Below, piece after piece: positions 36,131 to 36,653 of a stretch of 63,709 nucleotides of DNA; within the stretch, counting starts at the first letter, position 1, and every line of letters begins with the position of its first letter. The notes below the pieces were generated by a model, which saw nothing but the letters and a program-made list of their open reading frames with translations, was not told the DNA's origin and did not search any database. The translations under genes were made by a program, and so were the position numbers. This DNA comes from Leptolyngbyaceae cyanobacterium (GTDB lineage: Bacteria; Cyanobacteriota; Cyanobacteriia; Phormidesmidales; Phormidesmidaceae). The stretch lies in the NCBI GenBank assembly GCA_050331235.1, contig JBHJHA010000034.1:1-63709 (forward strand). Reading direction: 5' to 3'.

Positions 36131-36167
36131 AAAATAAAGCCCCCTAAACGAATGTCATTCAGGGGGC
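36131..36167 (-). terminator. Rho-independent terminator of peptide gene
   Basis: Minus strand: GCCCCCTGAA ... TTTAGGGGGC followed by TTTATTTT. Confidence 0.75.
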
Positions 36168-36220
36168 CGGCATAGAGGTGTGTGAAAAGGTATGCAGAAC
36201 GTCGTCAGAAACGGAACGGC

Positions 36221-36388
36221 TTATGCGATCGCGTCTTTCTCTAAATTCTCGCGACGCAGTTCATCAAAGTTGACCGCATCTTTGTCGAGGTTTTCACGAC
36301 GGAGCTGATCAAAATTGACGCCGCCAGAAACTTGCGTCAGTTCCTGCTCAGAAATGTGCTCGGTGGTTTGCTGATTTAGGTTAGCCAT
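36221..36388 (-). CDS. Double-glycine-leader peptide with two repeated 15-aa cores (RiPP/bacteriocin-like precursor)
   Basis: RBS AAGGAG; leader MANLNQQTTEHISEQELTQVSGG, then VNFDQLRRENLDKDA VNFDELRRENLEKDA IA. Confidence 0.7.
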   Translation of the reverse strand: MANLNQQTTEHISEQELTQVSGGVNFDQLRRENLDKDAVNFDELRRENLEKDAIA

Positions 36389-36653
36389 GGGGGACTCCTT
36401 TGAATGAATCATCTCGTTCGAACGTCTTCAATTTAGCCGGCTGGCCATGGCGCTACGTGATGCTCAGATAAGAGTTACCGGAGGGAAGCTCAGCCCTAGT
36501 TCAGTCGATTTTCATATTGCCTAGAGGGCCTTTCATCCCGCTCCTGTAGAGAAGACAGCTCATCCATAGAGCAGCCATTTCTCAGCACTCAGACAAAGCC
36601 CCCCAGCCCTGAGATCAGGACTCTGTTGTCAGAAATGCCCGTGATCTCAGCGG

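Follow-up and report, generated by a model that had tools for sequence, protein, structure and literature searches.

A multi-copy family of twin-repeat peptides in one group of filamentous cyanobacteria, with the same cores behind double-glycine and Sec-type leaders

Within a 63,709-nt stretch of DNA from a Leptolyngbyaceae cyanobacterium (hereafter the window), a gene of only 55 codons is real and is a member of a conserved peptide family that occurs in multiple copies in a single group of filamentous cyanobacteria. The family presents the same core repeats behind two kinds of leader, a double-glycine (GG) leader as in the window gene, or a Sec-type signal peptide. Our leading reading, held tentatively, is that an unmodified twin-repeat peptide would be released into the periplasm by a C39 exporter and would serve there as a lineage-specific ligand, hence a signal, for a partner.

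The original prediction described an orphan 55-aa precursor with a 23-aa double-glycine leader, two 15-aa cores lacking Cys, Ser and Thr, a ribosome-binding site and its own terminator, and all these elements were recovered (Table 1). The Shine-Dalgarno AAAGGAG ends 6 nt upstream of the ATG; an alternative in-frame ATG exists at 36412, and the start at 36388 is common to three orthologues. The terminator stem spans 36168-36138 and none of 200 shuffles was equally stable (fold z = -3.56). The two 45-nt core copies are identical at 34 of 45 bases and differ in nine codons, seven synonymously and two conservatively (Q/E, D/E), which agrees with the mainly synonymous or conservative divergence that had been claimed. 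An adjacent 15-aa repeat with at least 13/15 identity was found in only four of the 26,448 genome ORFs of 40-100 aa, all four belonging to the repeat-peptide family, and the tandem repeat is therefore not a matter of chance. The predicted 32-aa product is very hydrophilic, with 9 D/E, 6 K/R and no Cys, Ser or Thr. No Pfam family matches the window peptide; PF28158 occurs as a precomputed annotation on two homologues. Neither a C39 exporter nor a RiPP enzyme was found among the 45 window proteins scanned, as had been stated, and in this sense the gene is an orphan within the window; genome-wide it is not, given its paralogues and an exporter on contig C2.

Table 1. Features of the window gene and its paralogues. 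Positions without contig name refer to the window.
Feature	Position	Strand	Remarks
Precursor ORF (leader, two cores, IA, stop)	36221..36388	-	55 aa; ATG at 36388, stop at 36221; 92 homologues (protein search)
Double-glycine leader, 23 aa, ending ISEQELTQVSGG	36320..36388	-	Conserved in GG-type homologues
Core 1, 15 aa	36275..36319	-	Follows the leader
Core 2, 15 aa	36230..36274	-	DNA closest to last core of two-module orthologues
Ribosome-binding site AAAGGAGT	36394..36401	-	Kept in orthologues
Intrinsic terminator, 14-pair stem and T-run	36126..36168	-	Similar hairpin in L035 and L036
Upstream box (CTTATC..ATCAC) and TAAATT -10-like hexamer	36430..36476	-	Conserved in orthologues; putative promoter class
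66-aa gene without known family	36654..36854	-	Frequent upstream neighbour of the repeat-peptide family
GG paralogue	C2:33241-33519		92 aa; leader-core-core, internal leader, two more cores
Sec-type paralogue	C37:32351-32584		Same cores behind Sec-type signal peptide
Sec-type paralogue	C28:13061-13240		Same cores behind Sec-type signal peptide
Decayed Sec-type paralogue	C82:17250-17510	-	Frameshifted; triple-repeat promoter retained

The genome (95.5% complete) contains four further copies, on contigs C2, C37, C28 and C82. The N-termini of the C37 and C28 proteins combine a pair of basic residues with a hydrophobic stretch and end in an A-x-A-type motif. The C82 remnant adjoins a DUF7662-HTH gene, the same position that intact copies occupy in loci L088, L099, L102 and L104. 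The search for paralogues with variable repeat number that had been proposed along with the original prediction thus returned copies, and across the family GG precursors have 2, 4 or 6 cores and Sec precursors 2-10. Homologues with a name in the protein search are cyanobacterial, mostly Leptolyngbyaceae-type. A profile search gave family matches in 114 of the 173 genomes of the order, by a profile that includes the leader and with weak matches checked only in fetched loci. Outside the order a single genome (G319) among 398 has the family. Core profiles run on a 401-genome phylum sample matched the three genomes of the family, G319 and a few weak instances in long or unrelated frames. In G319, which belongs to another order, four Sec-type proteins (L239, L244, L246 and L262) are built of 16-aa repeats; R-F-E-T-L-N units resembling one dialect (g18) occur in its Sec-type repeat proteins, in one protein as an admixture. 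Core dosage is high, with as many as 10 cores in one gene and 50 core matches in one genome. Four large proteins among 96 profile matches (P0210, P0253, P0257 and P0286) were discarded since their repeats are unrelated. Genome G031 has about eight Sec-type copies on contigs C3 and C4 (L165, L175, L179, L183 and L187), which are small and possibly plasmids. Identical precursor loci in genomes of different genera (L269/L270 and L095/L097) are probably a binning artefact.

Typing by script divided 77 precursor loci into 39 GG and 38 Sec, with Sec signal peptides assigned by a heuristic, one GG gene (L075) typed as Sec and one locus (L036) having both. GG precursors repeat the leader ahead of each core doublet; in Sec precursors, spacers such as VVEIQVKG or VYEVVAA separate the doublets. 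The leader, with an acidic helix, ends L-x-x-V-x-G-G, as in double-glycine substrates of peptidase-containing ABC transporters (PCATs), and its L, V, G and G are invariant in all 25 aligned GG-type homologues; the motif whose loss among homologues had been named as counter-evidence is thus retained. Bacteriocin-leader models gave weak matches below their cut-offs: in homologues, NF038167 (CTB family bacteriocin) scored 16-25 bits on the leader only, against a cut-off of 32, and TIGR03793/03798 (NHLP / Nif11 leaders) 13-15 bits against 51 and 32; none of them matches the window protein. The pentapeptide MXKDX repeat protein model (TIGR02953) was rejected, with 14-27 bits against a cut-off of 41 and no MxKDx motif.

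The cores follow the frame Φ-x3-R-x3-L-D, in which R, L and D do not vary across the 15 doublets aligned; distant genera fill the same frame with different words, and two units are present in 110 of 113 distant GG cores. Across 388 cores from 86 precursors residues are near-invariant and synonymous variation is free, several positions being fixed by the core-finding pattern itself. Local scores between GG and Sec cores amount to 95-150 within a dialect and 18-67 across the three main dialects, with G168 and G319 intermediate. Since GG and Sec cores agree within a lineage, it is the product rather than the leader that is conserved. The V-D-F-D-E/Q-L segment may resemble a helix-capping start, and Φ, R and L would fall at i, i+4 and i+8. 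For an 8-core precursor structure prediction yielded no confident fold (pLDDT 37), only one short low-confidence helix per core. Atlas look-alikes of this precursor and of the 66-aa neighbour scored at most 0.82 and were uninformative, and a PDB sequence search with profiles of both yielded nothing beyond one chance match.

Three orthologues with a common upstream region consist of two modules (97 aa), the window copy of one. Its leader matches module 1 and its cores are closer to module 2 in two of the three, which is consistent with loss of one module by recombination. That the window copy would be a two-module gene now in decay or reduced by mis-assembly, as these resemblances and the already decayed C82 copy could be taken to mean, is very improbable: frame, ribosome-binding site, upstream box and terminator are all intact, core codon differences from the orthologues are mostly synonymous (synonymous to nonsynonymous-type splits of 8:2, 7:2 and 11:4), and the one-module form is the commonest among GG genes (28/49). 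The orthologue modules have at most 14 exact bases in common, too few for an assembler to collapse them, which makes collapse unlikely. In run X1, which may be the window source, the gene is covered by two contigs of equal depth that differ from it at 0 and 2 positions; among the matches listed there is no junction that an extra module would create.

An unrecognised RiPP class with side-chain chemistry, as had been proposed, is not supported. The same core stands behind Sec-type signal peptides in 38 of the 77 loci; a modifying enzyme as conserved neighbour was found neither in the 77 loci, nor in 40 adaptor-centred loci, nor beside 53 Sec-type genes; and YcaO or PqqD/RRE had no match in the 95.5% complete genome. 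Because no modifying enzyme travels with the repeat-peptide genes, a modified peptide or new RiPP class is unlikely. A LanC search was blank, its control likewise being silent. By length and sequence, the RimK-family matches resemble housekeeping ligases. Of 17 radical-SAM matches in the genome seven were scanned against families, where four exceeded the family cut-off (NifB, ArsS, the MSMEG_0568 type and a TIGR03936-fused protein) and two fell below; the remaining ten are, by their N-termini, presumably housekeeping proteins. The seventh of those scanned, a lone radical SAM/SPASM gene without family match (C14:10289-11368, minus strand), is unlinked to the repeat peptide, and among ORFs of at least 90 aa no precursor lies near it. 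A RiPP in which Arg, Lys, Asp/Glu or Asn is modified by an unlinked enzyme could draw on this SPASM gene, on the invariant Arg and Leu-Asp, on the repeated leader-core cassettes and on a possible periplasmic modifier; we consider it quite improbable, given the searches above and given that Sec-type precursors lack a leader that a cytoplasmic enzyme could read.

An exporter suited to the GG leader is encoded in the genome. The C2 copy is divergent to genes for TIGR03896 (twin-cNMP), a TIGR03794-like HlyD protein, TIGR03796 (C39-ABC) and TIGR03797 (peptidase-less ABC), and TIGR03796, TIGR03797 and TIGR03896 are all matched above cut-off, as in NHLP-type exporters of group V. The C39-ABC (C2:35526-37745) has its Cys/His/Asp catalytic motifs intact. 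Only two C39 domains exist in the genome and the other belongs to a HlyB-type T1SS, from which we infer, as the simplest reading, that the window gene stands alone and that the C2 exporter handles its product, so that the predicted maturation in trans would have its enzyme there. The search for a PCAT partner, likewise suggested beforehand, hence leads to a C39-ABC system linked to 21 of the 39 GG loci (the cluster's cNMP gene is present at 21/39, in 20 cases divergent within 700 nt) and to none of the 38 Sec loci.

The adaptor of this exporter is unusually short, about 190 aa (184-209 aa in 13 aligned), less than half the length of the NHLP adaptor. Against TIGR03794 (421 positions) it reaches 66.5 bits with a cut-off of 156.2, covering only positions 1-56 and about 290-420; a full-length relative is longer by some 270 residues and carries the lipoyl and hairpin region in its middle part. 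The structural model of the short adaptor consists of one TM helix and a beta-barrel (pLDDT 70). The best Foldseek match is BesA, in excerpts of PMC3807786 also a periplasmic adaptor without alpha-hairpin; BesA still has its lipoyl and membrane-proximal domains and works with an RND pump, whereas the repeat-peptide adaptor retains the anchor and barrel only. The short adaptor was found in 89 of the 173 genomes of the order, 86 of which have a peptide match, and of the other three two show a precursor on inspection. This co-occurrence is also seen within genera of patchy distribution: in genus g11, 18 genomes have both, 12 the peptide only, none the adaptor only and 23 neither, and in genus g14 the numbers are 22, 1, 2 and 21, counts that include related and hence non-independent genomes. 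Genus g10 has its ABC genes relocated, with adaptor and precursor still together. Adaptor matches outside the order (401-genome phylum sample) are in frames of 321-617 aa.

In known pumps the alpha-hairpin contacts the TolC entrance (excerpts of PMC3807786 and PMC4446572), and an exporter without it therefore likely stops at the periplasm, the destination of the Sec route. The modelled short adaptor thus likely points to periplasmic release, and the periplasm is a more likely destination than the medium. BesA works in a tripartite pump without a hairpin (PMC3807786), so hairpin loss is no proof of such release. For Sec signals in cyanobacteria the thylakoid lumen is another possible destination (PMC12756182). 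In a one-contig complete genome (G019) Sec-type copies occur with neither the short adaptor nor a C39-ABC orthologue, so the exporter is not the peptide's partner and the peptide's job is independent of it.

Full secretion, with the peptide acting outside the cell in the matrix of biofilms or mats or as a bacteriocin without modification, has a precedent in EbfG1-4 of Synechococcus elongatus, C39-exported GG-leader proteins found at the surface and in the matrix, three of them amyloid (PMC4997328 and PMC9981879). With EbfG1-4/PteB, as there described, the repeat peptide has in common unmodified GG-leader products, a C39 transporter and a non-antibiotic role; going by the same descriptions it is set apart by helical charged repeats, the stripped adaptor and Sec paralogues, while EbfG proteins act outside the cell. 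The DNA moreover comes from a stromatolite metagenome, and small peptides may cross the outer membrane otherwise. We nevertheless regard full secretion as unlikely: the adaptor lacks lipoyl and hairpin, the Sec route ends in the periplasm, the core is net acidic with predicted helices, and no immunity-type gene is among the conserved neighbours. In its net acidic charge the core differs from cationic bacteriocins.

The promoters of the family fall into three classes. Sec genes display three direct repeats with an 11-bp period, a spacing typical of OmpR-family sites, ahead of a -10-like hexamer in 46 of 50 promoters; within the genome, scores above 14 for this triple box are confined to the C82 remnant and the two Sec genes. 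Exporter-linked GG genes have a TTTTTCAGGCAGACA box, present in 31 of 85 GG promoters. In the genome this box is also found ahead of an alpha-amylase-family gene and of two operons, one of the SDR-aquaporin-symporter type, the other running from a GMC oxidoreductase to a glycogen-debranching gene; counting the one at the exporter-linked precursor, the four sites of this kind are C27:43327(+), C27:28156(-), C79:9182(-) and C2:33591(-). The exporter-linked precursor and three sugar-catabolism genes or operons may, going by this box, form an undescribed regulon. For stand-alone GG genes a third box was detected in 14 of the 22 promoters tried. The window gene matches neither the Sec triple box nor the exporter-linked box; the matrix of 14 other stand-alone GG promoters scores it 11.7 at the expected distance, a weak value (107 genome sites exceed 11), and these matrices, trained on related sequences, show conservation and not function. 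A control box common to the repeat-peptide genes and a membrane sensor was not found in the genome.

The 66-aa ORF upstream has 210 homologues and no family or PDB match. Genes of this family (about 65 aa) are present in 28 of the 173 genomes, mainly in three genera, and lie within 1.2 kb of 11/33 Sec genes and 2/38 GG genes, counting genes with enough flank. Conversely, 12 of the 30 best 66-aa gene loci have a repeat-peptide gene within 1.5 kb, a figure biased by the training set and including the window and two identical records. By its genomic distribution the 66-aa gene is a frequent, non-essential companion of the repeat-peptide genes. A second copy of this type in the genome (C64:37830-38024) has no adjoining peptide gene.

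No universal sensor or receptor neighbours the peptide, and the sensors near the exporter vary by lineage. In one genus, 8-10 loci place a CHASE2 membrane protein next to the exporter together with a pair of response regulators, one OmpR-type and one NarL-type; in another, seven loci have a GAF-HisKA_3 kinase near it. Both may be plain synteny. The CHASE2 loci (L123, L129, L131, L132, L135, L142, L201 and L207) provide a first receptor candidate. DM13-domain secreted proteins or lipoproteins occur near or within the exporter cluster at positions varying by genus (L048, L051, L052, L057, L060, L065, L074, L077, L086, L092 and L124; C2:30428-30796 in this genome). As functional partners they were rejected, being patchy (10 loci from two genera, besides the C2 copy and a single further case) and read as synteny, and the same was concluded for chlorite dismutase-like, HNH, DUF7662-HTH and AAA_35 neighbours.

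In the mechanism that we propose, the C2 C39-peptidase ABC exporter would cut the 23-residue leader at Gly-Gly in trans and release an unmodified 32-residue twin-repeat peptide into the periplasm, with no recruitment of an outer-membrane channel. Each core would form a short helix with Φ, R and L on one face, the product may be trimmed further, after Lys, to single or double units, and the mature peptide would act as a ligand signalling to a partner. Of the two options in the original prediction, that of a secreted signalling peptide would thus be the better one, with the periplasm as its likelier destination. Numerous gene copies and several cores per Sec precursor would increase the dose, and the three promoter classes would be three regulatory inputs to one product. 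Dialects together with residue-level invariance are what a ligand co-evolving with its partner displays; the lineage-dependent sensors, which may reflect synteny, and the lack of a receptor found near the exporter count against it, and the high core dosage also fits a bulk structural role.

Such a bulk envelope component, reaching the periplasm by the same routes as stress protectant, ion binder or self-assembling filler and not as a signal, would suit not only this dosage but also the very hydrophilic core, the lack of a predicted tertiary fold in the 8-core precursor and the occurrence of the exporter-linked box ahead of sugar-catabolism operons. A generic protectant would hardly need the invariance within dialects and the shifts between them, and we judge this role rather unlikely. 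For its ion-binder variant there is a faint EF-hand_5 match at the helix start, below cut-off. Compared with the 12-residue EF-hand loop (D1, D3, D5, G6, E12), the core junction is shorter, the linker between the helices varies in length across dialects and Glu has no preference for the second core in Sec-type doublets, and an EF-hand was rejected. Returning to the ligand, its extension to an envelope-confined signalling system in non-heterocystous filamentous cyanobacteria, in which one ligand with genus-level dialects takes two independent periplasmic routes (Sec polyproteins of up to ten cores, and an exporter with a cut-down adaptor that would fall short of the outer membrane) and carries information along or between filaments, is conceivable but doubtful.

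The exporter type itself is already known. The comparisons that follow draw on excerpts of the papers cited. NHLP-type three-gene exporters (TIGR03794/03796/03797) were described by Haft et al. 2010 (PMC2887384) and group V cyanobacterial bacteriocin clusters by Wang et al. 2011 (PMC3140520); the C39-ABC, peptidase-less ABC, twin-cNMP and HlyD-like genes and the adjoining GG precursor are shared with them. Group V precursors are described as diverse and rich in Gly/Cys/Ser/Thr, whereas the repeat-peptide core is a conserved charged doublet without these, and the excerpts of PMC3140520 and PMC2887384 do not mention Sec-type paralogues or internal leader repeats for group V. Table S3 of PMC3140520 lists S7335_2492, a 58-aa acidic group V precursor (6632 Da, charge -4.5) catalogued as NHLP without comment. 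Its length, mass, pI and charge are within the repeat-peptide range, with no exact mass match among 88 records, and by size and charge it is probably a family member. HetC is a PCAT without nearby adaptor for which periplasmic peptide delivery was proposed (PMC10986499); it resembles the present exporter in cNMP regulation and in this proposed delivery of a peptide signal, and differs as a single long-type transporter from a two-ABC system with an evident substrate. PatX of Nostoc, a Sec-exported, periplasm-processed signal (PMC12756182), is a cyanobacterial precedent for the proposed ligand. In a works-like comparison, PatX/PatP/HetR and the repeat peptide share a small precursor, a Sec signal, periplasmic processing and an Arg-containing active peptide. 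Unlike PatX, the repeat peptide has no RGxGR motif, is multi-core and multi-copy and has a second route via a PCAT. Its host lineage presumably lacks heterocysts, unlike Nostoc, and to our knowledge few peptide signals are known in cyanobacteria (PatS/PatX/HetN). Yeast alpha-factor, fungal KEPs and neuropeptides come from precursors in which a signal peptide leads a long series of near-identical units set apart by short spacers; to these eukaryotic multi-copy precursors the likeness is an analogy only. In the literature searched, mainly open-access, we found neither the core nor the dual route nor the short adaptor described.

With 15-32-mers that can be synthesized and a known exporter, the question is directly testable, and cultured hosts are available among the relatives (Nodosilinea nodulosa PCC 7104, Halomicronema and Leptothoe strains), which build mats and stromatolites. 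The stripped adaptor is a natural test of a type I-like exporter rewired to stop at the periplasm, a model proposed and unproven for HetC. For genome miners there is the caution that 'bacteriocin' clusters of this kind need not yield antibiotics or modified peptides.

Elsewhere in the window, a subtilase with proprotein-convertase P-domain (48839-50911, plus strand) was considered as processing protease and dismissed, as it is not a conserved neighbour in other loci. Downstream of the peptide gene, an ORF at 35326-35643 (minus strand) is glutamine synthetase inactivating factor IF7-like, below the family cut-off. A globin fused to a C-terminal part that looks redoxin-like (fold judged by eye) occupies 37875-39456 on the minus strand and overlaps a MarR gene, and at 54218-58426 (plus strand) a laminin-G protein is followed by a 969-aa protein that starts with beta/gamma-crystallin repeats.
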